Part shown: piece by piece, positions 7,231 to 35,735 of the stretch
Position numbering within the stretch: position 1 is the first letter of the stretch
How the letters are laid out: each line of letters opens with the position of its first letter
From: Patescibacteria group bacterium
GTDB taxonomy: Bacteria; Patescibacteriota; Microgenomatia; Levybacterales; UBA12049
Direction of reading: 5' to 3'
Length of the DNA stretch: 64,000 nucleotides
NCBI GenBank assembly: GCA_038063415.1
Contig: JBBTVD010000006.1
Location: forward strand, 9,948-73,947
Made by a program: the position numbers and the translations under genes
The notes under the pieces: generated by a model
Databases searched by the model: none
What the model saw: only the letters and a program-made list of their open reading frames with translations
Told to the model about the DNA's origin: nothing

Positions 7231-7569
7231 GTTGTATTCATCTTCTCGATAAGAGAATAGTAAAAAAAGATATTAAGGCACCTGCAATCGGACCACTCAA
7301 AATTATTAATTTACCCTCTGGGGATGACGCATTGTAGAGTCCCACTATATAAGTATAAAAATTAAATATTTGTTCCTTGAAAATAAAAACTAAACTTAGA
7401 AAAGCAAAGAAGAAAATAGTTTTTTTATTTTCGTAAATAAAAACTACGGGACGAAGAATAATGTATTCTAAAAATAATTCAAAAAAATCTTCATGAGTTA
7501 AGCGATTATATCATGCTACATAAAGTGTATTAAAATATTTTTTCATATATATTCTGTCGTATTTTGCGT

Positions 7570-7606
7570 CTGGACTTCGAATGGCTTTAGCGGTATCGTC
7601 TGCCCT
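7570..7606. repeat. CTGGACTTC...CGGTAYC motif, copy 1 of 3, upstream of recombinase A
   Basis: ctggacttcgaatggctttagcggtatcgtctgccc. Related copies at 34781-34815 and 35700-35735. Confidence 0.4.
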
Positions 7607-7753
7607 GATGAAAAAAGAGGAAGACATAGAAAAAGCGCTGCATATTCTTCAGAAATGCGAAAAGTACTTTTATTGGTATCTTTTGAAACACGATAAAATT
7701 TATATCGAACGCTTCTTTATTCACACCAAGAAACTAAAAAGGATGGTGCAAAA

Positions 7754-13788: not shown

Positions 13789-14775
13789 ATGCATTTTAAT
13801 AAAACAATCTTACTTTTGGGTGCCGGGTTTTCAAAGAATTTTGGTGGACTCCTAGCAAGAGAAATGTGGGCAAAAATATTTAATCATCCTTTATTGGATA
13901 CTGCTGGAGACGTAAAGTTAGCTTTAAGGCATGATTTTAATTTTGAAACTGTCTATTCTGCAATGTATAACTTTACTGAGAATGGGAAAAAAGATCAATT
14001 TAAAGTTTTGGAACAAATTTTACAAGATGTTTATAAAAATATGAACGATATATTACTCAACCCGGCTGCTGATACTGGAGTAAATATTAGTTTGCTACAA
14101 AATAATTTTATAAACAAATTCACGGATGATGGTAGTGGAGGGTTTGGTGCATGTTTTTCATTGAATCAAGATTTATTTTTTGAGAAATTCTTTAATAGAA
14201 ATCCACTAGGTCCAGCATCAATAATTTATGGAACTAACCCTAATACTGTTCATGCAGGCGAACTTAATATAGATAAAAATCTTCCAACTCCAGAACAAAT
14301 GGATGCTTATAAAGCACAATTTCAGGAACGAGGGTTTGGATTTATTAAATTGCATGGTTCATTAAACTGGATTACCGCGGATGGTAATTCCGCCAAAGTC
14401 ATTGGAATAAATAAACCTGAAATCATCTCATCCATCCCTTTACTCAAATGGTATAGAGAATTATTTGCACAAGCTGTTCAACAAGAAAATATTAAATTAG
14501 TTGTTTATGGATACAGCTTTAATGATAAGTATATCAACGATATTATTGTAGATGCCATTCATGGTAAGCCTGATAGAAAAGCAAGTAATGCGAAAATTTA
14601 TATTGTTTCACCAGAGAATCCTAAAGATTTGAAGGAGAGACTTGAAAAGACAGATCATGGCGAAATATGGAATGCTGTAGATGGTTATTTCCCATATCTT
14701 ATGCGTGATTTATTCCCAGCTAATGGACAAACTACTTCTCAGTATAATGAACTTATTACGCGTATTGGATTTTAA
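13789..14775 (+). CDS. stand-alone SIR2-like domain protein
   Basis: 328 aa. N-terminal LLLGAGFSKNFGG (SIR2-type GAGxS loop). Divergent from the helicase-nuclease gene. Confidence 0.65.
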   Translation: MHFNKTILLLGAGFSKNFGGLLAREMWAKIFNHPLLDTAGDVKLALRHDFNFETVYSAMYNFTENGKKDQFKVLEQILQDVYKNMNDILLNPAADTGVNISLLQNNFINKFTDDGSGGFGACFSLNQDLFFEKFFNRNPLGPASIIYGTNPNTVHAGELNIDKNLPTPEQMDAYKAQFQERGFGFIKLHGSLNWITADGNSAKVIGINKPEIISSIPLLKWYRELFAQAVQQENIKLVVYGYSFNDKYINDIIVDAIHGKPDRKASNAKIYIVSPENPKDLKERLEKTDHGEIWNAVDGYFPYLMRDLFPANGQTTSQYNELITRIGF

Positions 14776-15118: not shown

Positions 15119-15763
15119 ATGGCAAAAAAGACAAAACTAATGAGCATGCGAAAGCTGATCTATTTAGTACTATCTATAGTAATTCTTGGTCTTGGTGCTC
15201 TAGTTTGGTATAAAAACTGGCAAAGCAAGTTTGAAGCTCCTAGACAAAATACTCAATCAATTGGGTTTACTTTTAAGAAAGATACCTCCTTAACGGCAGT
15301 AGTTGGTGATCTTCACTATTACGGATTCATTAAAGATGAAGGTGCGTTTATATACGCATTAGCGCACACAAAAGATAATACTCCAGGCAAAGAGAGTGCT
15401 CTTACTATTGGGAGTAACACCATCAACCGAGAAGCTAGATATAAAATCTCTCAAAGTATGACTGCTTGGCAAATAGCGGACGTACTACTTAACCAAGGTG
15501 AACTTAGTACATGTGACCACGGCTGTCCTGATAGTAACTTTGATCCTGAACTTCTTCCGGGTGGCGATTTGGCACCCACTCTGAAAGAAAAGTACTCTGG
15601 GGTTAAAACCTACGAAGATTGCACCAAGGCGATTGGCCACGATGGCGGGCAACTTTCTTCAGAACAATATGCTCAGAGAACTGGAATTAGGAGATGTGTC
15701 GCTCCTGATGGGCGAGAATTTACTCAAGGGAAAGAAGGTTGGTCAGATGTCCCTACTCCTTAG
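15119..15763 (+). CDS. membrane-anchored hypothetical protein
   Basis: 214 aa with an N-terminal TM helix (LIYLVLSIVILGLGALVWY). Composition is more G+C-rich than neighbouring island genes. No recognisable catalytic motif. Confidence 0.5.
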   Translation: MAKKTKLMSMRKLIYLVLSIVILGLGALVWYKNWQSKFEAPRQNTQSIGFTFKKDTSLTAVVGDLHYYGFIKDEGAFIYALAHTKDNTPGKESALTIGSNTINREARYKISQSMTAWQIADVLLNQGELSTCDHGCPDSNFDPELLPGGDLAPTLKEKYSGVKTYEDCTKAIGHDGGQLSSEQYAQRTGIRRCVAPDGREFTQGKEGWSDVPTP

Positions 15764-16415
15764 GTGGTCGACCCCTTTTTACAGTAACTGTTCCTGGTAT
15801 ATTAGTTTGAGCTAGTTTGTGGCTAATCGCTCCTATATTTACGTCGTACGCCTCCAATCTAGGACTGTAGGACACAACACGAGCAATAGTATCAGGATGA
15901 TTGGAAACTTCTTGGACTGAAAATGCTTTTAAGTCAGTTTTCAAAGCCAATAGGTTATCTGTTACGGCTTGGTGATCAATTTCTAAATCCTTGCCAATAT
16001 GAATAAGAATCCAGTATCCTTCTGGTAACTGGAACTTACCCCCACGCTCACTTAATTTTTCTACCAATGATTTTTTAGGTAAACCAAGTTTGTTTCTACC
16101 ATAAAATGTCATTTCAATAGGAGCTATTTCTTGTGTTTCATCAGAGACTGGTCGCATTAGAAATGCATCAGGCGAATCATCAATATTATTCATTTGTACG
16201 AAGCATGAATGCTCTTGCATTGTATAGAAAGCTAAGCCAAAGATCGCCAAGTCGCGTAGTTCGCGAATCCTTTTATGCTTGCCGTTGTACTCAATCTCAT
16301 CATGACCAATGCCTGTGGCTTGTTTTTGATACTCAAAATAAGCCATATCAGGTCTTAGCCACACCTTATCGTGAGGAATCGTAAATTTTCTCGATGGTTT
16401 CTGCGCGTCTTTCAT
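15753..16415 (-). CDS. hypothetical protein, gene 4 of a four-gene operon
   Basis: 220 aa, no recognisable domain. Overlaps or abuts upstream genes on the same strand. Confidence 0.55.
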   Translation of the reverse strand: MKDAQKPSRKFTIPHDKVWLRPDMAYFEYQKQATGIGHDEIEYNGKHKRIRELRDLAIFGLAFYTMQEHSCFVQMNNIDDSPDAFLMRPVSDETQEIAPIEMTFYGRNKLGLPKKSLVEKLSERGGKFQLPEGYWILIHIGKDLEIDHQAVTDNLLALKTDLKAFSVQEVSNHPDTIARVVSYSPRLEAYDVNIGAISHKLAQTNIPGTVTVKRGRPPKE

Positions 16416-16423
16416 ATATTAAA

Positions 16424-17440
16424 TTAATCTTTGGACTTCTTGATTCCGACCCTCCCGAGTATAACAAAATATAAGTAGAGAACGAGGGTAGTATTTTGGA
16501 AATTACACTCCGCAGGAGCTATTTCACCATGAGCGATTTTATGTCTGAGCTTATATCCCATGGGCTCAAAGAGAACGAACTTAATTTGCCTACAGAAGTC
16601 TTCTCCAAATATTTTTATAAAATCTTCTGAATCAAAATCTCTTTCAGAAAGTACTTTCGTACGTGTGGCTGTATCGACTGTGGTATCTAAGGCGACAGTA
16701 CTAATGCCCAGTTGTTTGGCTATGCTTAATAAAAATGATTCAAACTGTGGAACTAAAATATGAAGAGCAGAAATATAATCCTCCTCATAATATTTTTTAA
16801 TACCAACAAGTACTATCTTAAGTTGATTGGGAGTAAACAATTCTGATTTAGAAAAATAATCAGATATTTCTTCAATGTTCATCATCTCTCCATAAGGGTT
16901 GCCATTTATTAGCATATACATTAATCGATTTAGACACAAAGTAACTATCTGTTTCAAACTTAAATCATACATTTGCATAAACCATGAGTATTCTGCTAAC
17001 GAGCCCCCACGCAAGTTGTGACCTTCGTCTGAAATAGTAGTTAATGTTGCAAACTGATAAGTGATTGGCATTGTTCTCTTAGCCAAAATATCCACATCTT
17101 TAACTTTGGGCATAAAATCAGGGTGCTGGCCAATAATCTTCAGTACTCGGTTTTTATCATCGATCTTGAGAATACCTACAATAAAGTTTTTAAGAGAATT
17201 ACTTTGTTCTTCGGTCAGATCATGTACAAACTCATGTTCTTGAAAATCCTTGCCAGACTCAATAGATTTTTTATTCATTTCCACAACCTTCGCCTTACAA
17301 AGTTTTATGGATACAGAGTCTTCAAGTTTTTTTGCCATTTCAAGCGCTTCCTTATATATAATCGCGGCACTAAAGAAACTTTCTGAATTTTCAGCTGTCT
17401 TTGCCTCCTCAATTTTTTTGTTAAGATCCGTTTTGTTCAT
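16424..17440 (-). CDS. hypothetical protein with a C-terminal HEPN-like (Abi_2-type R-x-x-I-A-H) motif
   Basis: 338 aa. C-terminal LRHKIAHGE fits the Rx4-6H HEPN signature and the Abi_2 (AbiD/AbiF) RxxxAH pattern. 4-bp overlap with the upstream gene. Confidence 0.55.
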   Translation of the reverse strand: MNKTDLNKKIEEAKTAENSESFFSAAIIYKEALEMAKKLEDSVSIKLCKAKVVEMNKKSIESGKDFQEHEFVHDLTEEQSNSLKNFIVGILKIDDKNRVLKIIGQHPDFMPKVKDVDILAKRTMPITYQFATLTTISDEGHNLRGGSLAEYSWFMQMYDLSLKQIVTLCLNRLMYMLINGNPYGEMMNIEEISDYFSKSELFTPNQLKIVLVGIKKYYEEDYISALHILVPQFESFLLSIAKQLGISTVALDTTVDTATRTKVLSERDFDSEDFIKIFGEDFCRQIKFVLFEPMGYKLRHKIAHGEIAPAECNFQNTTLVLYLYFVILGRVGIKKSKD

Positions 17441-18264
17441 TGTGATTTCCCAAAGTTAATCTGTTGCATCCACTCTTTTTGATTATGCGCTGACATAAAT
17501 GATGGATCTTGAGAAACCATAGCAAAAAGTATGGACATAACTGGTTTACTCTCTTTATCGTAAGGGAAAGTTAGTAAACAAATAAATCCCATTGATTCAG
17601 AAGAAATAGAAGAGCGAAGATCATCTGTAGCCTTCTTTAAATCGATACTCAAGTTTGTTTCACTTGAATATGGCATGACTAGAACACAATTAATGCTTGC
17701 GGGTTTTTGAAAGTACTTTTTATATATTTTAAGTCCTTCAGTAAGTTGATAATTAGGATTGCCTTTAACAGAAATCTTTGGGTTGATCATCAAAGATTTT
17801 AATTCTAACGGAATAGATATAGTCTCTTTAGCGGTGTTTTTTGGTAATCCAAGTAAAAAACCGTCCCAGCTACCTTTTCTGAAATGTGCTTTTACACCTA
17901 TTGTCTGATCAGGGAGTTGCCATGATGGAATTAACGTATAGTCAGTGCTATGTTTGCCTAATGTGTATGTCGTCTGGAGCACTCCTACCAAAATAGCTAG
18001 CTCGATTGCTCTCAAATCATTATCAAAGTCGAACTCGTTGAGAAGTTGGATATCCTTAGCTCTTTTCATGAGTACATTTTGCAAATGCTCAGTGTTAGAT
18101 AGCTGTTTGGAATTGCTGAGCAACTCTTGCTCGAAATACTTTTTTATTTGTCTGTAGAGATATTTGACATCATATGCGGCCTGAAAATTTATTGTTCCGT
18201 TGACCGTTTTGGCTAAAATATTTATGACCTTTGGTTTATCATTCTTCAAAACTGGACTTTCCAT
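17437..18264 (-). CDS. hypothetical protein, gene 2 of the operon
   Basis: 275 aa, no recognisable motif. Translationally coupled to the downstream gene. Confidence 0.55.
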   Translation of the reverse strand: MESPVLKNDKPKVINILAKTVNGTINFQAAYDVKYLYRQIKKYFEQELLSNSKQLSNTEHLQNVLMKRAKDIQLLNEFDFDNDLRAIELAILVGVLQTTYTLGKHSTDYTLIPSWQLPDQTIGVKAHFRKGSWDGFLLGLPKNTAKETISIPLELKSLMINPKISVKGNPNYQLTEGLKIYKKYFQKPASINCVLVMPYSSETNLSIDLKKATDDLRSSISSESMGFICLLTFPYDKESKPVMSILFAMVSQDPSFMSAHNQKEWMQQINFGKSQ

Positions 18265-18276
18265 AGTATTCTTGCA

Positions 18277-19953
18277 TTATAGTTCAATAGGTTTGCCATC
18301 TTTACCAACAATTGTTTCTCTAATTTTCTTATCTTTTCTTGGGTATTTCTTCAAAAACTCTTGATTCTCTGAAACCAGATAAATAGTGTAGTAAATCTGT
18401 CCTTTTTCATTCTTCAAGTCGCGACCTTTTAGCAACCCCTCTCTTTTTAATTTACCTCTTGTCGCAGGATGTACCCCAAAGTCTGATTCTATCTGCCAAT
18501 CTTGGAAGTAAATATTATCCTTGTCATATCTATGCTTTAGTGGAGGAATCACTCCTGATTTGATATTATTCCAGCAATTTCTGCACCACAAGCCATTTAG
18601 CGTCCACCAAATGTCTTTTCCATATGCTCCTTCACCACAAATTCCGCAAGAATACGGCCCTTTACCATCATCAAGGAAGAATCCTTCTGGCTCTTTCTCC
18701 AGCCTTCTTTTTCGTGTTGCTTCAATACCATCAAACTCTCCAGACATTTTTGCGAGCTGTACGAGATTATGGTTCGCATACTTAGCTCGCTTTTCTGGAT
18801 CTATTTTTGATTTAGAAGCTTTAACCTCTTTTTTAGCTCCTACCAACTCATGCAGATCTTCTTCTTGTTCGTACGCTTTCAGAGTGCCGGAGAGATATCC
18901 AATGCGGTAGCGTATCCCATCACTCATTAGTCTCCAATTGGTGTCTTCTAATGTGTCTTTCAGGAGCTTCTTGAGAGTTGCTTCACTTATATTAGGATTT
19001 CGTGTTGAATTAGCATCTAGAACATTAAAGGGAATCGTAACAAACCTTCCCATATCTGGTTTATCCAGCGTGAACTTAACATATTTTTCCTTCTCTAGTT
19101 TTTCAGTAAGCAGTTTCTCGACTTCAAGAACAGTTAACCTTTTTAGATTGACTGCCGTTTGGTAGGCTTTGTCATCGTATTTCTGTTTTTCTTCTTCATA
19201 TACCTCATGACCTACTTCCATGGCTTCAAGTGTTTCAACGTGTTCTATTCCATCCTTTTCATTTAAACAAAACTCTTCTCGATACTTCTCAAGAAGCTTT
19301 TTGCCTTCTTCGTCCTTACTCTTTTGCTCTTCCTTCCATTTTTTGTGTTCCTCATCATGTTTACCAAGATCCTCAATTTCAATTTTTGTATAACCACAGG
19401 CTTTGCATTTGTGTTTCCAAGTAATGATTTTGCCTTTTCGAGTAGCTATTATATCTATTTCTTCTTTGCACTTTGGACAAAGATCAGGTTTTGAAACGCG
19501 AATCTCACCATCGTCATATACCCACTGTTGTTTCTCGCAGTTACTGCATTTAAAAAGAAACATCATCCTTATGATTGGGCTGTCGTAAGTAGAGTCGAGA
19601 TGTTTTGTGATATTGAAATGCATCGGAGCATTACAGAGAGGACAGACAATACCTTCGGGAGTTGGAGTGTAATCTTGCTTATCTTGTTTTAACTTATCTT
19701 CTTCCATCCACTTCTGGATAGTTTCTTGCTTCTTCTCATACCTTTTGCCTTTTACAACAAGAAGCATTCGACTGAGCATGAGATTTACATCGTGTAACTT
19801 ATCTTCTTGGGAAATATCTTTTATTTCTTGGCTAGTTAGGCTTTTTTGATAAATATCCTGGAACATTTTTACCGTATCGAGGCATTCTTCAACGGTATGA
19901 AGATCGTAGCGATCTATATAGTGTTGCTCATCTTCCAGGTATTTCATTGGCAA
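18277..19953 (-). CDS. multi-zinc-ribbon hypothetical protein, first gene of the operon
   Basis: 558 aa with at least three CxxC...CxxC pairs (CPLC/CSNC, CPKC/CKAC, CGIC/CRNC) and charged coiled-coil-like linkers. No enzymatic motif recognised. Confidence 0.6.
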   Translation of the reverse strand: MPMKYLEDEQHYIDRYDLHTVEECLDTVKMFQDIYQKSLTSQEIKDISQEDKLHDVNLMLSRMLLVVKGKRYEKKQETIQKWMEEDKLKQDKQDYTPTPEGIVCPLCNAPMHFNITKHLDSTYDSPIIRMMFLFKCSNCEKQQWVYDDGEIRVSKPDLCPKCKEEIDIIATRKGKIITWKHKCKACGYTKIEIEDLGKHDEEHKKWKEEQKSKDEEGKKLLEKYREEFCLNEKDGIEHVETLEAMEVGHEVYEEEKQKYDDKAYQTAVNLKRLTVLEVEKLLTEKLEKEKYVKFTLDKPDMGRFVTIPFNVLDANSTRNPNISEATLKKLLKDTLEDTNWRLMSDGIRYRIGYLSGTLKAYEQEEDLHELVGAKKEVKASKSKIDPEKRAKYANHNLVQLAKMSGEFDGIEATRKRRLEKEPEGFFLDDGKGPYSCGICGEGAYGKDIWWTLNGLWCRNCWNNIKSGVIPPLKHRYDKDNIYFQDWQIESDFGVHPATRGKLKREGLLKGRDLKNEKGQIYYTIYLVSENQEFLKKYPRKDKKIRETIVGKDGKPIEL

Positions 19954-20195
19954 TAAAATCTCCAGAACTTATACACATAATCTAACACAAACGACCCTAT
20001 TTTTTAATGGTATTTCAACACGAATACCTGTTTTTTTAAAACCTTGTCAAGGGGTATTTTCATCAAACAATTCGAAAAAGTGAAATTCAGATTAGCCCAA
20101 TAAATCAAGCTATTCTCTATGTAACCCAGGTTGTCACCTAGCCCCCTCCTTGTCACGGGGGGTCAGCGAAATCGATGGTACATTTAGCTTAATCT

Positions 20196-21536
20196 ATGAA
20201 AAATATATCAATCCAAACAGTCGAAGTACCAATCAATGATTTAATCCCAGCTGATTACAATCCGCGCAAGCATGATGATATAGCAACAGAGCAACTCAAA
20301 CAAAGTATTACACGTTTCGGCCTTGTCGATCCAGTTATTGTCAACTCATCTCCAGATCGTAAGAACATTATTATTGGTGGGCACTTTAGATGGGAAGTAG
20401 CTAAAACACTTGAATATGAGACAGTCCCTGTAGTCTATGTCGATATTCCTGATCTTGAAAAAGAAAAGGAATTAAACCTTCGCCTCAATAAAAATACTGG
20501 TGAGTTTGATTGGGATCTACTCGCTAAATTTGATGAGTCATTTCTGACAGATGTTGGTTTCTCCAGTGGAGAACTTGATGGAATTTTTGATGTCGATGTA
20601 CCAGAAGAGTTTGACCTCGAAAAAGAACTTAAGAAATTAAATATCCAAAATATTAATACCCAAAAAGGTGATATATACGATTTGGACGGTAGCCGTCTTA
20701 TGTGTGGCGACTCAACAATAGAAGAAGACTTTCTAAAACTAATGAGTGGTGAGAAAGCGGACATGTGTATGACCGACCCACCATATATTTTGGACTACCT
20801 TCATGGCAAGAAAAAGCATGGCAAACCAATAACGGGCTTCGGTGCTAAAAGAGATAGAAGATATTTGGAAACAGACTCTCTCCCTCCTGATTTCACTGAA
20901 AAGTGGATGGGCAATATAAACAAGATTCAAAAAGAACATTTCAGCATTATTGTCTACGAAAACTGGAAAAACTTAAGGACTATCTGGGGTGAGATGGAAA
21001 AGTATTGGAAAGTGAAAAACATGATTGTCTGGCATCTGCCAAATAGACATCAGGGATTTTCAGCTAAATATAAATTCTTTTCCAAACATGATATCGCCAT
21101 GGTTGGTGCTTCTCCTGACAAAGATATTCCATTTAATCTCGAGGAGGAAATTGATGGACTCCAAGAAGAATATGAAACGGCTCTCTACGCCATCGCTGGA
21201 AAACCTCACTGGGAAGGCTACCAAAAAGGTAGGAAGAACCAACCAACTGATTTCATCGAATATGTGGCTTCAGACGAAAAACATTCCGGGCAAGGTGTGA
21301 TCTTTGGGACTAAACCAGTCGAGATTCTCATTCCCTATATAAAGATGCTCACAAAACGTGGAGATTTGGTTGTTGAGCCATTCTCGGGCAGTGGTAGCAC
21401 TCTCATTGCCTCGACCAAGATGAAGCGTCGTTGTTTCGGCATGGAAAAGTCTCCAGTATATGCGGAGGTCATCATCAAACGTTGGGAAAAGTTAACAGGC
21501 AAGAAACCCAAAAAAATATATGGACAAAACAATTGA
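20196..21536 (+). CDS. ParB-like nuclease domain fused to a DNA N6-adenine/N4-cytosine methyltransferase
   Basis: 446 aa. ParB N-terminal motifs (NPRKHD..., GGHFRWE). Methyltransferase motif IV DPPY (MTDPPYILDY) precedes motif I FSGSGST (beta-class order). Fusion typical of phages and plasmids. Confidence 0.8.
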   Translation: MKNISIQTVEVPINDLIPADYNPRKHDDIATEQLKQSITRFGLVDPVIVNSSPDRKNIIIGGHFRWEVAKTLEYETVPVVYVDIPDLEKEKELNLRLNKNTGEFDWDLLAKFDESFLTDVGFSSGELDGIFDVDVPEEFDLEKELKKLNIQNINTQKGDIYDLDGSRLMCGDSTIEEDFLKLMSGEKADMCMTDPPYILDYLHGKKKHGKPITGFGAKRDRRYLETDSLPPDFTEKWMGNINKIQKEHFSIIVYENWKNLRTIWGEMEKYWKVKNMIVWHLPNRHQGFSAKYKFFSKHDIAMVGASPDKDIPFNLEEEIDGLQEEYETALYAIAGKPHWEGYQKGRKNQPTDFIEYVASDEKHSGQGVIFGTKPVEILIPYIKMLTKRGDLVVEPFSGSGSTLIASTKMKRRCFGMEKSPVYAEVIIKRWEKLTGKKPKKIYGQNN

Positions 21537-21939
21537 AAAAAGACAGTCAAAAAATAAAGAACAATTGTTGGAGATATTAAAGAAGACTCCGATTGTTCAA
21601 ATCGCTTGCGAAAAAGCTGGAATTGGTCGAGCAACTTATTATCGTTGGAGAAAAGAAGATGCTGGATTTGCTCAGGTGAGCGATCAAGCACTTCTGGATG
21701 GAAACTTGCTTGTAAATGATATGGCAGAGAGCCAAATGATGAGTGCCATTAAAGACAAAAACATGACTGCTATCATATTTTGGCTTAAGCACCATCATCC
21801 TGCCTATGCAACCAAGATAGAAATCATGGCTTCAAATAAAAACCAAGACATAGTTCTTACCGACGAACAAAAAGAACTCTTAAACAAGGCATTAGAAATG
21901 GCGGCACTTATTCCGCCTCAAGAAAAAGATCATGAATGA
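21520..21939 (+). CDS. HTH protein, probably a terminase small subunit-like protein
   Basis: 139 aa. HTH IACEKAGIGRATYYRWRK. Overlaps the upstream gene and immediately precedes the large terminase. Confidence 0.5.
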   Translation: MDKTIEKRQSKNKEQLLEILKKTPIVQIACEKAGIGRATYYRWRKEDAGFAQVSDQALLDGNLLVNDMAESQMMSAIKDKNMTAIIFWLKHHHPAYATKIEIMASNKNQDIVLTDEQKELLNKALEMAALIPPQEKDHE

Positions 21940-23479
21940 ACAACAAAAGATAATTAAACAGATCCAAGAAAGTCCTGATTTTCGAAAAGCATTAACGCAG
22001 GAGAATTTTTATTGGTTCTTCACTACCTACTTTCCTCACTACATCACCTGTCCAACTGCTGATTTCCAAAAGGAAATCTTTAATCTTATCCAAAATGAGG
22101 AATTAGAAAAGATTTCTATTACCGCCTTTCGTGGCTCGGCTAAATCAACAATAGCAACCTTGGCACTACCTATCTGGGCAATGGTTGGTAAGCCAAGCAA
22201 GAAATATACCCTGCTTGTGAGTTTAACTCAGGGATTGGCAAAACAAATCCTTACCAATATAAAACAGGAACTTTCATCAAATGAACTGTTGATACGGGAT
22301 TTTGGACCATTCTCAGAAGTAGCCGATGAATGGCGATCCAATTCACTAGTGATCCCGCATTACAATGCTAGAGTTTCAGCTATATCTCAAAGCGAAAGAA
22401 TCAGAGGACTCAGGCATCGACAATACCGACCCGACCTTATTATCATCGATGATGTTGAGGACTTAGAATCAGTTAAGACGAGAGAAAGCAGAGATAATCT
22501 ATGGAACTGGTTTTCTGGTGAGATAAAGCCAATTGGAGATAGTGGCACTAGAATAATTACTGTAGGCAACCTGTTACATGAGGATTCGCTGATGATGCGA
22601 ATTAAGCAAAATATCCAAACAGGGGGAACGGGTGGTATTTATAAGGAATTTCCATTGTTAGACGATAACGGAAATATTGCTTGGCCTGGAAAGTTTCCAA
22701 CCATGGAACACATTGAAGCCAAAAGAAAAGAGATCGCTGATGAGTCAGCATGGTACCGAGAGTTCTTGTTAAAAATTATTGCTGACGAAGACCGAATTGT
22801 AAAAGGTTCTTGGATAAAATCCTACGACATTCTTCCTAGCTCTGATCGCTACCCAGCCAGACTTGTAGCAATTGGTGTTGACTTAGCTATTTCACTTTTG
22901 GAATGGGCGAACTTCACGGCCTTAGTTCCAGCGTATGTCGTGGGTTACGGTGACAATCTTCAAGTTTACATTTTGCCTTATATCTTAAACAAAAAATTAG
23001 ATTTCCCACAAACAATTCAGGCAATAAAAACACTGACCGAGCAACTTAAAGTAGGTTATAGACCATATCCTGTAGCTTACATAGAAAGTGTTGGCTATCA
23101 AAGTGCCGCAGCGCAACAACTGACAGTAGAACACGTACTTGCTGAGGAAGTGAGAATTCCACATATGGATAAGAGATCAAGACTATCCATAGTGTCTCCC
23201 CTTATTCAACAAGGGAAAGTATTTTTTCCAAGAACAGGTGCAGAAGTATTAATAGGTCAACTTGTAAATTTCGGTGTGGAGAAATACGATGATTTAGCGG
23301 ATGCTTTTACCTTGCTAATGGCAAAAGTCATAGAGTCAGACCGACCATCAAGCAGACGTAAACCGGGCGAAGTGTCTGCAACAGAACCTGATCCTCATCC
23401 TGGATTAACGTGGTCTTTGCAACACATGAATGATTTAGGATTTGATTTTGAACCAATTACACTTGATACGAAATTCTAA
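21932..23479 (+). CDS. terL: phage terminase large subunit
   Basis: 515 aa. Walker A-like AFRGSAKST, Walker B LIIIDDVED, C-terminal RNase-H-like nuclease region. Architecture of Terminase_6-type TerL. Confidence 0.8.
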   Translation: MNEQQKIIKQIQESPDFRKALTQENFYWFFTTYFPHYITCPTADFQKEIFNLIQNEELEKISITAFRGSAKSTIATLALPIWAMVGKPSKKYTLLVSLTQGLAKQILTNIKQELSSNELLIRDFGPFSEVADEWRSNSLVIPHYNARVSAISQSERIRGLRHRQYRPDLIIIDDVEDLESVKTRESRDNLWNWFSGEIKPIGDSGTRIITVGNLLHEDSLMMRIKQNIQTGGTGGIYKEFPLLDDNGNIAWPGKFPTMEHIEAKRKEIADESAWYREFLLKIIADEDRIVKGSWIKSYDILPSSDRYPARLVAIGVDLAISLLEWANFTALVPAYVVGYGDNLQVYILPYILNKKLDFPQTIQAIKTLTEQLKVGYRPYPVAYIESVGYQSAAAQQLTVEHVLAEEVRIPHMDKRSRLSIVSPLIQQGKVFFPRTGAEVLIGQLVNFGVEKYDDLADAFTLLMAKVIESDRPSSRRKPGEVSATEPDPHPGLTWSLQHMNDLGFDFEPITLDTKF

Positions 23480-23480
23480 A

Positions 23481-23894
23481 CTAAATTCCAAGAATCTGTT
23501 TCTTTTTCTGATCAAATTCTTCTTGAGACAAGATACCTTTTTCTTTTAACTCATTTAGTTTAACGAGCTCATCAGCATCGCTTGTCTGATGATTGTTTCC
23601 TGAGAAATGAGCTTGTGCGTCATATATAGCTTTTTGAACCTCTTTCTTTTTGGAAGTTGGTACGGCGTATTTCTTTCCTCCTGTTGTTTCTAAAGTTATT
23701 TTCCATATACCCATCATAGGTAGTTGAACGCTTGCTATCTGATTTATCGGAATACTTTGAGAACCAACTCCTGCCTTGAATTCAACTCTGTTGGGGAAAA
23801 TCTTAATCCAAAAGCCAGCATAGCTTGTTTCGTATAAAGGTTTTTCTCCGGTTTGTTGTTTATTTCCAAATAGTCCCATTTTGTTCACCTCCAA
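23481..23894 (-). CDS. hypothetical protein with a C-terminal SHOCT domain
   Basis: 137 aa. C-terminus ELVKLNELKEKGILSQEEFDQKKKQIL is the SHOCT signature. Confidence 0.6.
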   Translation of the reverse strand: MEVNKMGLFGNKQQTGEKPLYETSYAGFWIKIFPNRVEFKAGVGSQSIPINQIASVQLPMMGIWKITLETTGGKKYAVPTSKKKEVQKAIYDAQAHFSGNNHQTSDADELVKLNELKEKGILSQEEFDQKKKQILGI

Positions 23895-24004
23895 TCATAA
23901 GTTAATTGCTTAGTCCACCTTAGCATAAAATACCCCTGTATTCAAGGCTAAACTCTTAGTGTGGCTAAGTGGAGTAATGGTCAAGCGTTTTAGACAATAT
24001 ATAC

Positions 24005-24217
24005 ATGAGGAAAAACGCAACGCTTCCAAAAGCCATAGGGAAGAAAATCCAGAAGCGAAGAAAACAAATAGGGATTACTCAGGAGGAAGCCGCCGAAAGA
24101 GCAGGTATCAGCCGAGCCTATATGGGGTATATTGAACAAGGTAGACACGCTCCTTCTCTCGAAGTACTCCAAAAAGTAGCAAAAGCCCTCAAATCTTCCA
24201 TGAGTGACTTCGTTTAA
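24005..24217 (+). CDS. XRE-family HTH transcriptional regulator (paralog of 6402-6605)
   Basis: 70 aa, IGITQEEAAERAGISRAYMGYIEQGRHAPS. Confidence 0.75.
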   Translation: MRKNATLPKAIGKKIQKRRKQIGITQEEAAERAGISRAYMGYIEQGRHAPSLEVLQKVAKALKSSMSDFV

Positions 24218-24245
24218 GGAATTTCTCCTGTACTACCTAAATTTC

Positions 24246-24266
24246 GACCTTTTTGAGGTCTTTTTT
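24246..24266 (+). terminator. rho-independent terminator after the XRE gene
   Basis: gacct-ttttg-aggtc hairpin followed by tttttt. Confidence 0.5.
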
Positions 24267-24279
24267 CGTATAAAAATGG

Positions 24280-24308
24280 TTGAAAAAGCCTAGCTAACTC
24301 TATATAAT
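24280..24308 (+). promoter_or_regulatory. sigma70-type promoter (TTGAAA-N17-TATAAT) for the HTH_17/hsd operon
   Basis: ttgaaa at 24280-24285, 17-nt spacer, tataat at 24303-24308. Confidence 0.55.
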
Positions 24309-24319
24309 ATTGTTATCAA

Positions 24320-24508
24320 TTGGTAAGTAATGTTCATATGGAAAAACTACTAACAATCAAAGAGGCAGCTGAGATACTCAATGTCCACGCCAACACCCTA
24401 CGTTTGTGGGATAAAAAAGGCATTCTGGTAGCTGTGAGGATAGGAGAAAAGCGTACTAGACGTTATCGACAGTCAGATTTAGAAAAGTTTATTAGTCACA
24501 AGAAGTAA
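24320..24508 (+). CDS. HTH_17 (MerR/excisionase-family) DNA-binding protein (paralog of 6106-6288)
   Basis: 62 aa, LLTIKEAAEILNVHANTLRLWDKKGIL. True start may be the internal Met (MEKLL). Confidence 0.7.
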   Translation: MVSNVHMEKLLTIKEAAEILNVHANTLRLWDKKGILVAVRIGEKRTRRYRQSDLEKFISHKK

Positions 24509-24517
24509 TAATTAACT

Positions 24518-26032
24518 ATGGCAAAAAATAATAAAACAGAATCATTCGAAAAAACACTCTTTAAAGCTGCTGACAAGCTCAGAAAGAATATGGACGCGGC
24601 TGAATATAAGCATATTGTGCTTGGTTTGATTTTTCTAAAGTTTATCTCTGACTCTTTCGAAGAAATGTATATAAAATTGTCGGAAGGTAAAGGTGACTAT
24701 TCTGGAGCAGATCCCGAAGATGCTGATGAATATCGTGCAGAGAACGTCTTTTTTGTGCCTCAATTAGCTAGGTGGTCATATCTCTACTCTCGGGCAAAGC
24801 AACCTACAATTGGAACTGATATTGACTCAGCGATGGAGGCAATTGAAAAAGAAAATCCCACACTAAAAGGAATTCTTCCAAAAGTTTATGCTCGTCCCAA
24901 TCTTGATAAGACTGCTTTAGGTGGACTTTTGGACTTAATAGGAAATATTGCTCTTGGCGATACGGCTTCGAAGACTAAAGATTTACTCGGAAAAGTCTAT
25001 GAGTACTTCTTGGGTGAATTCGCACTTGCTGAAGGCAAAAAAGGCGGGCAGTTTTATACTCCACGTAGTGTTGTTCAAATCCTAGTAGAAATGCTTGAGC
25101 CATATAAAGGTCGTGTTTTTGATCCATGCTGTGGTAGCGGTGGAATGTTTGTTATGAGTGAAAAATTCGTTCAGTCGCATCAAGGAAAAATTGATGATAT
25201 TTCAATTTATGGTCAAGAAAGCAACCAAACAACTTATCGACTATGTCGAATGAATCTTGCCATTCGTGGCATTGATGGCTCTCAGGTTAAATGGAACAAT
25301 GAGGGATCATTCCTTAATAATGCACACAAAGATCTTAAGGCAGATTTTGTCATTGCTAATCCACCTTTTAATGACAGTGATTGGAGCGGTGAGCTACTTC
25401 AAAATGATGCTAGATGGAAGCATGGCACCCCCCCAGCTGGAAATGCTAACTATGCTTGGATTCAACACTTCTTATATCATCTTAGTCCTACTGGTAAAGC
25501 AGGTTTCGTTTTATCTAAAGGCTCCTTAACTACTAAAACTAGTAACGAAGGTGAAATAAGAAAAAATCTTATTGAATCAGATTTAGTTGACTGCATTGTC
25601 AATCTCCCAGCCAAGCTATTTCTTAACACACAAATTCCAGCTTGTTTGTGGTTTATGAATCGCAATAAAACTCAGAAAAAAGGAGAGATACTTTTTATTG
25701 ATGCTCGTAACCTTGGGCATTTAATTAATAGAAGAACACTGGAGCTATCAAATGAAAATATCCAGCAAATTTCCCAGACATATCATGATTGGAAAAATGG
25801 TAATGACTACGCAGATAAAGCAGGGTTTTGTAAATCTTCAACGATAGAGGATGTCAAAAAATTAGATTATGTTTTAACACCAGGTCGATATGTAGGGCTA
25901 CCTGATGAAGATGAAGAAATCAACTTCGAAGAGAAATTAGGTCAACTACGATCAGCTTTAAATGATCAAATTAACGAAGAGAATATCCTGAATAAAGAAA
26001 TTCTAGATAAACTTACAAAAATTAAGATATGA
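24518..26032 (+). CDS. hsdM: Type I restriction-modification methyltransferase subunit
   Basis: 504 aa. [19 protein letters not shown] (AdoMet motif I), VIANPPFN (motif IV). Confidence 0.9.
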
Positions 26033-27198
26033 ATAGCAATTCTAATAATATTTGGAGAGAATATCGGCTTGAAGAAGTTGTAGAAACTTTTATTGATTAT
26101 CGTGGAAAAACTCCAACTAAAACCGCATTTGGAGTGCCTCTTGTTACTGCAAAAATAATAAAGAATGGACGCTTACTCCAACCAAATGAATTTATAGATG
26201 AGAATTATTACAAAACTTGGATGACACGCGGCTTCCCAGAAAAAAATGACGTCTTATTAACTACAGAGGCTCCGCTTGGTGAAGTAGCATTGTTAAACAA
26301 TCCTAAGGTTGCATTGGGACAGAGGGTAATTACGATTCGTGGAAAAAAAGGATTTTGTGACAGCATATTTTTAAAATACTATTTCCAAAGTCCATTAGGA
26401 CAAAACTCTCTTTTATCTAGAGCGCAAGGTAGTACCGTTGAAGGAATTAAAGCGGCTGAACTTAAAAAGATGAAGATTCTGATGCCAAATTATGAAACCC
26501 AAATTGAATTATCCAGAGTATTATTTGTGCTTGACCAAAAAATTGACGTTCTTCTTGAGCAAAACAAAACTCTTGAGGATCTAGCGGAAACATATTTTCT
26601 TAAATTATTTGAAGCAGTCTCAGGCGAGAATTCTGGAACACTTGGTGACTACATTGATTTAGATCCTAAAGAAAAAATTAATCGCAACGAAGAATATCGT
26701 TTTTTTGATATGAAGACACTTTCCGAAAACTCTATGTCCATTGCAAACGGGCTGTATCGTATCGTAAATTCGGCATCTTCATTTAGAAATCTTGATACTT
26801 TATTAGCCAAAATTACGCCATGTTTAGAAAATGGAAAAACTGGTTTTGTCATGAATTTGGAAGATAATGAAGTTGCAAGAGGCTCAACAGAGTTTATTGT
26901 AATGAGGTCAAAAGGTTTAGTTAGTCCATATTGGATTTATTGTCTTGCCAGAAGCAAGAATTTTAGAGATGAAGCAATACAATCAATGACGGGTACGTCA
27001 GGTAGGCAGAGGGTTCAAACCTCACAGCTAAAAAATATTAAGGTTAGTTTTAATAAGAGAGACATGGAATCATTCAATGAGATGTGTAAAGGATTTTTTA
27101 ATAAGGTTAAAGAAAATTCTTCTCAAGTGCGCACATTGATAACTCTTAGAAACTTATTATTACCTAAACTAATGAGTACAGAGATTAGATTAAATTAA
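26029..27198 (+). CDS. hsdS: Type I R-M specificity subunit
   Basis: 389 aa with two target-recognition-like halves separated by conserved repeats. 4-bp overlap with hsdM. Confidence 0.8.
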
Positions 27199-27204
27199 AT
27201 TAAT

Positions 27205-28050
27205 ATGGCAAATTTAAGTAGCGTTGATAAGGTTAAAATTGAAAGACTTTTCGGAATGGGAAGTGGTTATGTGTTGGATTTTTCTAACCGCTCACTTCAG
27301 GACTTTATTTTAACCTGCTGCAAAAAAGATATTTTTAATGATAGATATAATCAAGGGTCTGGGTCAAAAGCCAATCGGTTAAGAGCTTTTTGGGATGCCG
27401 AATTAGATAGTGTTGTTGGGAAAGTCTTAACTGAAATGTTGGAGTATTGGAGAACACAAAAAGCATATTCTGATACTGGTATTCCTAAGGGGGAAGAGAC
27501 ACTATACAAAGATTGTTTAGTTATCGCACAAAGATTATCTGGTAAGACTACTAAAACAGAAGTCACTGAGGAAGAATTTCTACAAAAAGAATATAAAATT
27601 ATTTCTGTATCTGCATTAAATATAGATGGAAATGTCGGCGATGTAGTTAAACAAAGAATCAAAGAAATTGATATATGTATGAAGGCAAAAGCACCCCTTG
27701 CCTCAATTTTTCTGGCGGGAAGCACCCTAGAAGGAATACTTTTAAGCACCGCTATTAGCAATCCAAAAGTTTTTAACCAGTCCACATCTGCACCTAAAGA
27801 TAAAGAAGGAAAGGTTTTAAAGTTGAATGAATGGAAATTAAGTCAGTTAATTGATGTCGCCTGCGAAATTGGCTATTTGGATTTAGATATTAAAAAATTT
27901 AGCCACTCACTGAGAGATTTTCGTAACTATATTCATCCTTATGAACAAGCTTTAGCTGGATTTAACCCAGATGATGATACTGCTCAGATATGCTGGCAGG
28001 TATTAAAGGCTGCCATATCAGATTTAGGCAAAAAACAAACAACACTATGA
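27205..28050 (+). CDS. hypothetical protein embedded between hsdS and hsdR (possible HEPN-like motif)
   Basis: 281 aa. C-terminal [13 protein letters not shown] loosely fits Rx4-6H(xY). Contains AQRLSGKTT, a possible degenerate P-loop. Position is analogous to prrC-type genes inserted in hsd loci. Stop overlaps the hsdR start (ATGA). Confidence 0.55.
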
Positions 28051-31000
28051 CACAAATATTTGAATCAGATGTAGAAAAATTAACGGTCGACCTATTGATT
28101 AATCAAGGGTTTACTTATCTGTCTCCTGAAGAACAGGAATTAGAGCGGCAGAATCTAAAAGACGTTTTATTAGTAAATCGATTGAAGGTTTCCATAGATC
28201 GTTTAAATCCATCAATTACTGCTGACGCAAAAGCCCAAGCTCTAAAACAAGTTTTAAACCTTCCAACACAAAACCTACTTGAGAACAATGAGGCATTCCA
28301 CCGAATGCTTACAGAAGGCATCGAAGTTGAATATATGAGTAATGAAGGTGTCAGAGGTGAAAAAGTTTGGCTTGTTGATTTTAATGATATTGCCAACAAC
28401 GAACTTATCGTCACCAATCAATTTACTGTTATAGAAAATAACATTAACAAAAGACCAGATGTCATTATCTTTATTAATGGTTTGCCTCTCGTTGTTATCG
28501 AACTTAAAAACCCTACTGACGAAAATGCTACGGTTCAAAAAGCATTTACTCAACTACAAAATTATAAAAATGCAATTCCTTCACTTTTTTACTACAACAG
28601 TATTTTAATTGCGTCCGATGGTCTAGATGCTAAAGTCGGAACTATTTCTTCTGATTATTCTCGTTTTCTTGCTTGGAAATCTAAAGATGGATATAGGGAT
28701 GACAAGACAGTTGTTCCTCAAATAGAAACGCTGATCGATGGAATGTTAGTAAAAAATGTTCTTATTGATTTGATCAAACAATTCATTGTCTTTGAAAAAT
28801 CCAGTCATATCGATAGTAATACCGGGCTAACGACTATTAGTACAATCAAGAAAATAGCTGCTTATCACCAGTACTATGCAGTTAATAAAGCTGTTGAATC
28901 TACAATAAGAGCGTCAGATGACGATAGCTTAGAATCTACTGCTTTATTAGTAAGAGAAAAACCAGAAGAGTATGGTTTATCTTCAACTGTTAAACAGCCT
29001 AAGGGTGATCATAAAGCTGGTGTCGTGTGGCACACGCAAGGTAGTGGAAAATCTCTTTCAATGGTTTTTTATGCTGGAAAAATTGTATTGGCACTTAATA
29101 ATCCCACCGTGGTTGTCATAACAGATCGCAATGACCTAGACGAGCAATTATTTGATACATTTGCCAACTGTAAGCAACTCCTTAGACAAGATCCTGTTAA
29201 GGCTGAAAATCGCGATCACCTTAAAAAATTACTGAAAGTAGCTGGTGGTGGAATTGTATTTACAACAATTCAAAAGTTCTTTCCTGAGGATGGATCATCA
29301 ACTTACGATGAACTTTCAGACCGCAGTAATATTATTGTTATTGCTGATGAAGCCCATCGAAGTCAGTACGGATTCGGAGCCAAAACTACTTATACAGTTG
29401 ATGGCGTAAAAACGGGTTACGGGTTTGCAAAATATCTAAGAGATGCATTGCCATCAGCCTCATTTATTGGCTTTACGGGTACTCCTGTAGAAAAAGAGGA
29501 TGCAAATACCCCAGCAGTCTTCGGAAATTATATAGACGTTTATGATATTGCTAAGGCCGTAGAAGACGGTGCAACAGTTCGTATTTATTACGAATCAAGA
29601 CTTGCTCAGATTCATCTTAAACCAGATGAAAAGGCACAACTAGATGCAGAAGTAGAAGCTATCACAGAAGGTGAAGAAAGTACTGCTAAAGAAAAGGCAA
29701 AAGCAAAATGGGCTCAGCTGGAAGCTGTAGTTGGACACAGAGACAGGCTTGGAGTAATTGCTTCTGACATTGTTGACCACTTCGAGAAGCGACAGGAAGT
29801 CTTTGAAGGCAAGGCAATGATTGTTGCTATGAGTCGGCGAATTGCTGTTGAGCTCTTTGAAGAAATTGTTAAATTACGACCAGACTGGTTTGACAAAGAT
29901 CTTAGAAAAGGTGCCGTTAAAGTTGTAATGACATCCACCTCTTCCGATCCAGAGAGTTGGCAAATTCACAACACCACTAAACAAAACCGTAAGGATCTTG
30001 GAGAACGATTTAAAAATCCTATCGATCCATTAAAACTCGTTATAGTGCGTGATATGTGGCTCACTGGTTTTGACGCGCCATGTCTTAACACGATGTACGT
30101 TGATAAGCCAATGCAGGGACATAACCTTATGCAAGCGATTGCTCGTGTAAACAGAGTATTTAAAGATAAACCAGGTGGATTAATTGTTGATTACATTGGT
30201 ATTGCTTCTGATCTAAAGAATGCTTTAGCGACATATACCGCAAGCGGTGGTGAAGGCACGCCAACTTTAGATCAAGAAGAGGCTGTTGCGGCGATGCTTG
30301 AAAAATTTGAAATCGTTGAACAAATGTTTGATCAATACGACTTTGAACCTTACTTTACCGCTGATACTCATAAAAAATTGACCATTATCCTCGAGAGCCA
30401 AGAATATATTCTTGGACTTGAAGATGGCAAGAACCGTTTTACCAAGCAGGTAGATCTCCTATCTAAGGCTTTTGCGCTATCAGTTCCCCATCCAAAAGCA
30501 ATGGAGATAAAAGATGAAGTTGGATTTTTTCAAGCAATTAAAGCCAGACTTGTAAAGTTTGAGCCAACTTGTAGTGGAAAGTCAGATGCTGAAATTGAAA
30601 CTGCAATAAGACAGATTGTTGATAAGGCCGTGGTCTCTGATGGAATTGTTGATATATTCGATGCGGCCGGTATCAAGAAACCAGATATTTCAATTCTTTC
30701 TGATGACTTCTTAGCTGAAATTCAGGGCATGGAACGAAAAAACTTGGCAATGGAGCTTTTGAAAAAGATTCTCAATGACGAAATCAGATCACGAGTTAGA
30801 AAGAATTTCATTCAGAGCAAAAAGATGTCTGAAATGCTTGAGAATGCTATTAGAAAATATCAAAACAATTTATTAACTACAGCACAGGTTATAGAGGAGC
30901 TGATTAAACTTGCTAAAGATATTCGAGAGGGAGACAAGCGAGGTGCATCATATGGTCTAACGGATGATGAACTAGCTTTTTATGACGCTTTGGCAATTAA

Positions 31001-31238
31001 CCAAAGTGCAATGGAGGTTCTTGGTGATGCTCAACTTAGGGATTTATCAAGAGTACTTGTGCAGAGAGTTAAATCAAACACTTCAATTGATTGGACTATC
31101 AAAGAAAGTGTACAAGCCAAGTTAAGAGTGATTGTTCGTCGCACTTTACGACAATTTGGTTATCCACCAGATGCCCAATTACTTGCGACCGAAAATGTGT
31201 TGAAACAGGCTGAGCTGTTGGCCGATGATTGGAAATAA
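28047..31238 (+). CDS. hsdR: Type I restriction enzyme R subunit
   Basis: Start taken at the Met of [12 protein letters not shown]. Walker [13 protein letters not shown] box [10 protein letters not shown], helicase C-terminal motifs. Confidence 0.9.
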
Positions 31239-31247
31239 CAAAAATTT

Positions 31248-34010: not shown

Positions 34011-34012
34011 TC

Positions 34013-35699: not shown

Positions 35700-35735
35700 C
35701 TGGACTTCTCGAGAGGTTCCCGGTACCTTGACCAC
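35700..35735. repeat. CTGGACTTC...CCGGTACCTTG motif, copy 3 of 3, immediately upstream of or overlapping the recombinase B start
   Basis: ctggacttctcgagaggttcccggtaccttgacc. Confidence 0.4.

Follow-up and report, generated by a model that had tools for sequence, protein, structure and literature searches.

A capsid-less mobile island of Patescibacteria that carries a complete phage-type terminase and resembles phage satellites

We analysed a stretch of 64,000 nucleotides from a Patescibacteria group bacterium (contig JBBTVD010000006.1; the whole stretch is called the window here) that contains three packaging genes of phage type at positions 20196 to 23479. They code for a ParB-methyltransferase fusion (ParB-MTase), a protein resembling small terminases (TerS) and a large terminase (TerL). 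The genes are part of island B, a mobile island of approximately 28 kb (~9056-37243, ends approximate). With moderate confidence, we interpret this island as a helper-dependent, satellite-like element that has its own complete terminase but no capsid gene and was inserted by a serine recombinase beside a tRNA-Gln gene. The packaging trio is the conserved backbone of a whole family of islands, and the defence genes around it are variable cargo; a sequence-only reading of this DNA had instead taken the module itself for cargo within island B.

The packaging genes and the island family

All three genes are intact open reading frames (ORFs) on the same strand, overlapping by 17 and 8 bases. ParB-MTase matches the Pfam families ParB_N (6e-12) and N6_N4_Mtase (1e-22) as well as phrog_498 (4e-81), and its translation shows the methyltransferase motifs DPPY and FSGSGS. 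The second protein matches five small-terminase families of PHROG (best 6e-8) and, weakly, helix-turn-helix (HTH) families of Pfam. A profile of its family aligns with the TerS proteins encoded directly upstream of TerL in real phages (hhalign probability 90%, E 1.7e-6, 104 columns). The AlphaFold model of this protein has a predicted local distance difference test (pLDDT) score of 75, and its top matches in the PDB, 2ao9 (a phage protein) and the Sf6 TerS (gp1), are non-significant (E 0.4-4). The public protein collection contains 2193 clusters of homologues; wherever one is named, the label is hypothetical protein or "ACT domain-containing protein". Its small size, its N-terminal HTH, the position of its gene immediately upstream of that of TerL and its homology to known TerS proteins make it a predicted small terminase.

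TerL matches phrog_38 (large terminase) with 1e-76; Pfam yielded no match for the window protein, and its homologues carry PF17289 (Terminase_6C). The Walker A and Walker B motifs read FRGSAKST and LIIIDDVED, and 20 homologues, with identities as low as 48%, all retain K71/S72/T73, D173/D174/E176, D317, E385 and D454/D457. A sequence search of the PDB gave only marginal matches to T7 and PhiV-1 (~1e-3). Using the AlphaFold model (pLDDT 80.9), the top of a Foldseek search of the PDB consisted exclusively of large terminases, namely those of PhiV-1 (8dgc_E, 1.7e-18) and T4 (gp17, 5.7e-14), followed by T7, D6E, HK97 and Sf6. Separate matches covered the two domains, those to T4 gp17 and P74-26 the ATPase domain and those to G20c and RB49 the nuclease domain. 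The protein thus has both halves of a large terminase: the N-terminal ATPase is of the ASCE type, with Walker A, Walker B and a catalytic glutamate, and the C-terminal nuclease is RNase H-like, its acidic residues being conserved. In GenBank it is deposited as MEK7570902.1 from a Patescibacteria group metagenome-assembled genome (MAG) and annotated as hypothetical protein. The gene identities given by the sequence-only reading, three co-oriented and overlapping genes for a ParB-MTase fusion, a TerS-like HTH protein and TerL, are therefore borne out by the ORFs, Pfam, PHROG and the structure model of TerL.

Relatives of TerL are encoded in 561 stretches of species-representative genomes (one genome per species) and in 347 IMG/VR contigs. 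The best 80 of the 561 stretches span Microgenomates, Parcubacteria, Saccharibacteria, Berkelbacteria, Peribacteria, WWE3 and Dojkabacteria. Among the complete genomes that bear the element are CP011210.1, CP011214.1, OY970175.1 and OZ246402.1. A TerL profile was matched by 1380 clusters (50% identity) at E<=1e-30, and metagenomes contain thousands of relatives, the named ones coming from Beckwith-, Shapiro- and Roizmanbacteria. A tblastn search with TerL against 50,697 deposited phage genomes found nothing above 28% identity, which rules out that the module is a piece of a known phage.

We clustered the ORFs of all loci retrieved, with 10-kb flanks; 139 non-phage loci have a full-length TerL. 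In 133 of them a ParB-MTase gene lies upstream of TerL at a distance of at most four genes. A co-oriented serine recombinase gene lies downstream of TerL, within the 10-kb flank, in 86 loci, and follows TerL directly in 33. Seven contigs with TerL homologues were looked up, and six share one gene order: a stretch of variable content, most of it on the minus strand, in many cases a gene for a protein of 190-300 amino acids, then ParB-MTase, a protein of 136-149 amino acids and TerL. After TerL these six contigs carry genes for an XRE and/or a SHOCT protein and then variable cargo, such as type I restriction-modification (R-M), a diversity-generating retroelement (DGR) or Dcm-Vsr. A serine recombinase closes the row in five of the six, with a Thoeris-like TIR/SLATT pair just beyond the recombinase in one. 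Two of the contigs looked up are ~18-29 kb long and have this architecture.

The islands form a large, widespread and apparently undescribed family in Patescibacteria. No description of it was found in the full-text literature, of which most subscription journals were out of reach, and a prior description is possible.

Several further observations were made on members of the family. Six loci (L066, L096, L100, L102, L105 and L107) carry two tandem full-length TerL paralogues that belong to two distinct subclades; in several of these loci the TerS ORF was not called by the crude gene caller used. A member from Roizmanbacteria (L008 / L009, 16054-20373) has a DGR (RVT_1 and bAvd) and AAA_5 as cargo between TerL and the recombinase. 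Many third-party annotation (TPA) records of MAGs that contain the element (L010, L012, L016-L018, L020-L022 and others) are titled "uncultured Gammaproteobacteria", "Pseudomonadales" or "Bacteriovorax"; these titles are probably unreliable placeholders.

Missing virion genes, the TerL lineage and signs of mobility

More distant relatives in IMG/VR, whose TerL is 35-45% identical, are ordinary HK97-type phages (L133, L153, L155 and L165-L168). They encode, in this order, ParB-MTase, sometimes a C5-methyltransferase, TerS, TerL, portal, protease, major capsid protein (MCP), head-tail adaptor and tail proteins; the JGI contig L170 shows the same order. Their virion proteins are easily recognised: the portal (730-770 amino acids) matches phrog_2662 with 3e-104, the MCP phrog_10 with up to 6e-90, and there is a further PHROG match with 1e-21. 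Hidden Markov models (HMMs) of virion genes were built from the proteins of this phage lineage and run on the element loci with their 10-kb flanks. The HMMs match every phage locus. On approximately 140 element loci they found nothing convincing, the exceptions being two portal matches to short ORFs.

In the window, a six-frame translation of all 64 kb contained no homologue of portal, capsid, protease, adaptor or tail proteins at E<=0.01 with the related phages as queries, in agreement with the sequence-only reading, which had seen no capsid, portal or tail genes after the trio. No head-tail cluster was seen in the window, and Pfam and PHROG revealed no likeness to virion or lysis genes in island B. 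Since the virion genes of the related phages are easily recognised, their absence from the elements is real and not a problem of sensitivity. Island B is thus without complete virion and lysis genes, as is an apparently complete 17.3-kb copy described below, and it does not have the set of TerL, portal, HK97-fold MCP, tail and lysis genes that makes up an intact Caudoviricetes prophage. In none of the approximately 140 related loci is the trio followed by a complete prophage; a complete prophage contiguous with these genes in relatives had been named beforehand as a finding that would speak against a satellite.

A neighbour-joining tree of 163 TerLs places all phage-type proteins on one side and all element-type proteins on the other, without interleaving. 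This bipartition has a bootstrap support of 100/100 in a subsample of 75 taxa. The TerL of the window has dN/dS values of 0.043, 0.071 and 0.043 in comparison with L010, L001 and L011, at dS values of 0.54, 0.59 and 1.8, respectively. For TerS, dN/dS is 0.03-0.14, and for ParB-MTase compared with L001, pN is 0.07 and pS 0.78. Pseudogenisation, likewise named beforehand as a sign against a satellite, was not seen: the trio is intact and TerL evolves at a dN/dS of 0.04-0.07. Taken together, the separate TerL clade, the purifying selection and the invariant catalytic residues refute a recent or repeated decay of prophages; the elements are one lineage.

Two side observations concern the sequences of the module. 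Its similarity to relatives is mosaic: compared with L010, TerL is 95%, TerS 61% and ParB-MTase 36% identical, and the reverse pattern is found with L004, L006 and L014 (TerS 87-88%, ParB-MTase 79-84%, TerL 61-65%). This pattern points to recombination near the TerS/TerL boundary. In addition, the element TerLs carry an extra, poorly conserved C-terminal tail of 30-45 amino acids with low model confidence (in the window 23340-23479, residues ~470-515). It often ends in Phe or Trp and is missing from the phage-type TerLs of the sister clade. The tail could be an adaptation for docking on the portal.

As the sequence-only reading had stated, the island carries an integrase, which is a large serine recombinase. 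Its gene ends 182 bp from the 3′ end of the tRNA-Gln gene. In 18 of 78 loci the recombinase is followed, at a distance of 95-251 bp, by a tRNA gene on the minus strand (Gln, Ser, Glu or Asp). Tandem islands are present in the window and in several other loci, and one contig of 150 kb contains three copies of the element. One relative, L039 (Candidatus Falkowbacteria, JAFGMD010000010.1), is a whole contig of 17,334 bp and the only case with identical 44-bp ends, which suggests a circular copy of 17.29 kb. On it, ParB-MTase is encoded by two genes; TerS, TerL and two serine recombinases are present as well, along with ten small cargo genes, one of which codes for a protein with an Ntox44 toxin domain. 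No structural match was found in it, and its longest non-core protein has at most 386 amino acids.

Helper-dependent transfer and competing explanations

To our knowledge, a terminase can work only on a procapsid that bears a portal. Since the elements never encode one, helper-dependent transfer is the most economical explanation. Functions that could redirect the packaging of a helper are present in the form of the island's own TerS and TerL, which are intact and under selection; that they serve the packaging of the island itself is what we infer.

The following course would account for the data. The trio would have its origin in an HK97-type phage lineage, whose late operon begins with these genes and goes on with those for portal, protease and capsid. 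The island lineage would have lost everything after TerL once, long ago, and kept the remainder under selection. In the cell, the serine recombinase would excise the island as a circle, and a helper phage of the host would provide empty procapsids. TerS would bind the island's own DNA, and TerL would cut it and pump it into the helper procapsids. ParB-MTase might methylate island DNA and so protect it from restriction in the cell that it enters next, in analogy to the ParB-methyltransferase fusions of phages and plasmids. The recombinase would then re-insert the island next to tRNA-Gln, and the defence cargo would pay for its keep in the host.

Patescibacteria are ultra-small bacteria whose genomes measure ~1 Mb; recognised mobile elements are few, as are known phages. 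Here, hundreds of genomes at species level share a single backbone family; some contigs carry two or three copies of it, and its cargo includes restriction, SIR2, Mokosh-like and Thoeris-like systems and DGRs. Rather tentatively, we suggest that these islands are a Patescibacteria-wide, previously unrecognised class of satellites, capsid-less, with TerS, TerL and a protective ParB-MTase and with a serine recombinase, often at a tRNA gene and sometimes in tandem, and that they might be the main vehicle of defence systems and the first satellite-helper system of the phylum. If this is true, the islands are a major route of gene flow and defence turnover in Patescibacteria. A capsid-less island with both terminase subunits also raises the question of how a foreign TerL docks on the portal of a helper. 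For annotation, the family matters because its TerL and TerS proteins are called hypothetical protein in GenBank and because IMG/VR lists 347 such contigs as viral, most of which are capsid-less islands; this may inflate the counts of prophages and viruses for the phylum.

In comparison with known systems, the architecture is most like that of a satellite and lies between islands of the Staphylococcus aureus pathogenicity island (SaPI) type, which have TerS only, and phage-inducible chromosomal islands of the capsid-forming kind (cf-PICIs), which have a full head: a full terminase is present and no head. The uncultivated HK97-type phages have a homologous ParB-MTase and TerL (35-45% identity) and a homologous TerS family, all in the same order, but after TerL they go on to genes for portal, protease, capsid, adaptor and tail, and no serine recombinase adjoins their TerL. 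P4-like and PICI hotspot defence islands similarly carry variable anti-phage systems at fixed positions of a conserved mobile backbone, and differ in backbone genes, recombinase type and host phylum. The mycobacterial phiRv1/phiRv2-type elements are small islands with a large serine recombinase that keep capsid, prohead-protease and primase genes. They resemble the present family as serine-recombinase islands retaining few phage genes, which here are only ParB-MTase, TerS and TerL. With SatelliteFinder, PICI-type elements were found to be common in mycobacteria (PMC10085698).

The core of PICIs comprises an integrase, AlpA or an Stl/master repressor, a primase-replicase and TerS, and the TerL of the helper is used (PMC10085698, PMC10690885). 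TerL is among the genes that set cf-PICIs apart from PICIs (PMC10085698); cf-PICIs encode MCP, portal, protease, head-tail adaptor and connector, HNH, TerS and TerL (PMC10085698, PMC10690885). Island B resembles classical PICIs and SaPIs in being a small integrated island without virion genes that has its own TerS and accessory or defence cargo. It differs from them in having both TerS and TerL instead of relying on the TerL of the helper, and in its host phylum, Patescibacteria. A tyrosine integrase is absent and neither AlpA nor a primase-replicase was matched in the island by Pfam or PHROG, so that, with its own TerL, it falls outside the definition of PICIs. With cf-PICIs it shares the state of an integrated island with phage-derived TerS and TerL, for which the rest of the virion would come from the helper. 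Unlike cf-PICIs, which have 11 core genes and need only the tails of the helper, it encodes no MCP, portal, protease, adaptor, connector or HNH, and its integrase is a large serine recombinase; the definition of cf-PICIs does not cover it either. From the earlier description of the module as satellite- or PICI-like we therefore keep satellite-like, as the best available reading, and drop PICI-like.

Several points weigh against helper-dependent transfer. No helper phage was identified; the portal homologues of the related phages do not carry Patescibacteria names and have almost no named sources. Neither a pac nor a cos site was found, and the candidate motif lacks family-wide conservation. 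The window and the conserved accessory genes revealed nothing recognisable as a replication gene. The window copy is without the upstream 190-300 amino acid gene and the LexA-type repressor of most relatives and may thus be a partly defective or reduced variant. A search for att sites in the form of direct repeats at the recombinase-tRNA junction, the junction of islands A and B and in the rest of the window gave nothing above chance. An absence of flanking direct repeats is expected for serine recombinases, and the island ends are therefore approximate. The circular contig is a single case that could be an assembly effect. The TerL tree is a neighbour-joining tree, and its loci were picked by peptide patterns derived from element TerLs. 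Finally, the window covers 64 kb of a 380-kb contig, and virion genes elsewhere in the genome are possible.

Among the other explanations, an exapted terminase is the one that holds up best, and we regard it as unlikely. The island would then be a mobile defence island in which TerS, TerL and ParB-MTase act against phages, by cutting or mis-packaging concatemers or by competing for portals, or in which they process replication products of the element. The arms of the island are indeed dominated by defence systems, the genes are under strong selection, and neither a replication module nor a helper phage was found; moreover, satellites are known to interfere with the packaging of their helpers (PMC10690885). 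However, the motor and nuclease sites have been conserved together with a cognate TerS, which one would expect if the genes served true packaging, and the linkage to a recombinase and the tandem, multi-copy and mosaic distribution indicate frequent horizontal movement, which needs a vehicle. Interference and self-transfer are also compatible with each other.

We consider it improbable that the virion genes are present in cis, with the trio serving a split prophage, or a system like a gene transfer agent (GTA), as its packaging half, or belonging to a complete virus with structural genes too divergent to be recognised. Such genes could lie in the part of the contig beyond the examined 64 kb, and several proteins of the left arm have no recognisable function. 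Yet the structural genes of the related phages, which are readily detected, are missing from more than 140 loci with 10-kb flanks. The content of the arms varies from locus to locus, so that there is no conserved candidate set of capsid genes, and the apparently complete circular copy of 17.3 kb has neither a structural match nor a non-core protein of more than 386 amino acids.

An integrative plasmid-like element is slightly less probable still. In such an element ParB would partition the excised circle, the terminase would resolve or linearise concatemers, and transfer would occur by natural transformation. Many Patescibacteria carry competence machinery, which fits this route, as do the ParB_N domain and the one circular contig of 17.3 kb. 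The ParB_N domain is, however, fused to a methyltransferase and precedes TerS and TerL, which is also the case in phages of the related lineage; nothing recognisable as a replication initiator was found, and we know of no role of terminases outside capsid packaging.

Least probable is the decayed prophage that the sequence-only reading had offered as its alternative, that is, a remnant of a temperate phage with deleted structural and lysis genes that drifts towards loss: the module is clearly phage-derived with the gene order of real phages, the window copy is without some accessory genes of its relatives and the neighbouring island A has lost its packaging genes altogether, which shows that decay occurs in the family, but the same truncation exactly after TerL is found in approximately 140 loci from many Patescibacteria lineages without any intermediate that has a portal or capsid gene, the element TerLs form their own clade (100/100), and a TerL dN/dS of 0.04-0.07 at dS up to 1.8, invariant catalytic residues and an intact recombinase essentially refute it.

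Island content, junctions and control region

The first ~37.2 kb of the window consist of two tandem islands, A and B, each of which is closed by a large serine recombinase. The two recombinases are 68% identical, and the GC content of the islands is 0.33-0.36 compared with 0.40 in the core genes that follow. The features of the islands are compiled in Table 1.

Table 1. Features of islands A and B in the 64-kb window. Positions refer to the window; aa: amino acids.
Feature	Position	Strand	Remarks
Island A	1-9055		cut by the window start; cargo DUF2779 and HerA-SIR2 pair
Island A, HTH_17	6106-6288	-	island A backbone
Island A, XRE	6402-6605	-	island A backbone
Island A, DUF4352-like	6726-7175		island A backbone
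Island A, serine recombinase	7754-9055		island A backbone
SF1 helicase with C-terminal Top1-type zinc ribbon, Mokosh MkoA/PDC-S37-like	9057-13625	-	1522 aa; left-arm cargo
SIR2-like protein	13789-14775	+	left-arm cargo; Pfam SIR2_2 1e-8, PADLOC SIR2 families
214-aa protein	15119-15763	+	cluster u213; ORF clustering places it close to the left end in 11 related loci
Left-arm operon of four genes	15753-19953	-	220, 338, 275 and 558 aa
Divergent intergenic control region	19954-20195		near-palindrome CCTTGTCAAGGGG and TTGTCAC repeats
ParB_N / N6_N4 DNA methyltransferase fusion	20196-21536	+	446 aa; first module gene
TerS-like HTH protein	21520-21939	+	139 aa; overlaps TerL start by 8 nt
Large terminase TerL	21932-23479	+	515 aa; ATPase and RNase H-like nuclease domains; disordered C-terminal tail of ~45 aa
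SHOCT/bPH_2 protein	23481-23894	-	recurrent accessory gene after TerL, 12 loci
XRE-family HTH regulator	24005-24217	+	70 aa; adjoins TerL in 50 loci (cluster 4); orthologues Pfam HTH_3/HTH_31
Right-arm defence cargo	24320-34768	+	HTH_17 regulator first
Type I R-M, hsdM	24518-26032	+	
Type I R-M, hsdS	26029-27198	+	281-aa protein between hsdS and hsdR
Type I R-M, hsdR	27990-31238	+	
SMC/LmuB-like ATPase	31248-34010	+	920 aa; right-arm cargo
Cas4-like PD-(D/E)XK nuclease	34013-34768	+	251 aa; right-arm cargo
DUF4352 protein	35077-35625	+	accessory gene upstream of recombinase, recurrent in 32 loci
Large serine recombinase (Resolvase, Recombinase, Zn_ribbon_recom)	35728-37062	+	island B integrase, intact
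Right junction	37063-37317	-	spacer (181 nt), then tRNA-Gln(CTG) at 37244-37317, whose 3′ end points towards the recombinase; putative attachment region

The sequence-only reading had proposed a pac or cos site in the control region upstream of ParB-MTase. The TTGTCAC repeats and a CCCCC/GGGGG hairpin are indeed present (20130-20172). This block is kept only in the three closest relatives (L010, L011 and L024), and across 117 loci TTGTCAC-type words are not enriched upstream of ParB-MTase. The motif is thus not conserved family-wide and a role as pac site is unsupported. A promoter scan of 19800-24600 found fewer sites than in shuffled sequence.

Most relatives carry the 190-300 amino acid gene and/or a LexA/S24 repressor at the position of the control region; the window copy has neither. 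The 190-300 amino acid proteins have no match in Pfam, PHROG or the PDB. A CI-like repressor with LexA_DNA_bind and Peptidase_S24 domains adjoins the module in 21 loci (e.g., L011 7448-8062, minus strand, and L014 7021-7653, plus strand), which suggests an inducible element with SOS-type induction. The 70-amino acid XRE protein is a candidate switch or repressor of the element.

At the right junction, a block of ~100 nucleotides with repeated TACGGTC-like words lies between the recombinase stop and tRNA-Gln; it is conserved in six loci of different genomes (window, L018, L023, L040, L049 and L090). It is a candidate att arm or conserved host element. An Rfam scan of the whole window detected only the tRNA and nothing in the spacer block.

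The left end of island B was placed at ~9056 because the stop codon of the helicase gene is located 1 nt from that of the island A recombinase. The helicase matches AAA_11, AAA_12 and Zn_ribbon_Top1 in Pfam and PDC-S37 (4e-43) and MkoA (2e-32) in PADLOC. L010 has the same order as the window, a serine recombinase followed by a helicase of 1578 amino acids and the packaging module. Searches of Pfam, PHROG and PADLOC with the 214-amino acid protein were without match.

In the left-arm operon, the 338-amino acid protein has a DUF4209/PDC-S39-like C-terminus, and none of the four genes encodes a portal- or capsid-like protein. The 558-amino acid protein had been considered as a disguised portal. 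This was rejected, since it is a zinc-ribbon protein with multiple CxxC motifs and has no match in the PDB and PHROG; its family is also without match in Pfam and PADLOC. Proteins of 556-558 amino acids with at least four CxxC pairs (zinc ribbons) recur together with a partner of ~275 amino acids in 10 loci (including L006, L011, L074 and L082). These proteins could belong to a defence or accessory system of the islands that has yet to be characterised.

To the right of TerL, the next gene encodes a SHOCT protein on the opposite strand and is followed by the R-M locus, as the sequence-only reading had described, with the XRE and HTH_17 regulators in between. The HTH_17 proteins were set aside as candidates for excisionases: their genes come first in operons of cargo genes, and one orthologue forms a fusion with HsdM.

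The visible part of island A has no packaging genes, and just 113 bp occupy the position that ParB-MTase, TerS and TerL have in relatives. Island A appears to be a derivative without packaging genes, arranged in tandem with island B, and might depend on the terminase of the latter.

Directly after hsdR, the right arm of island B encodes the SMC/LmuB-like ATPase and the Cas4-like nuclease. The two may form a Lamassu-like or an R-M-associated two-gene system.

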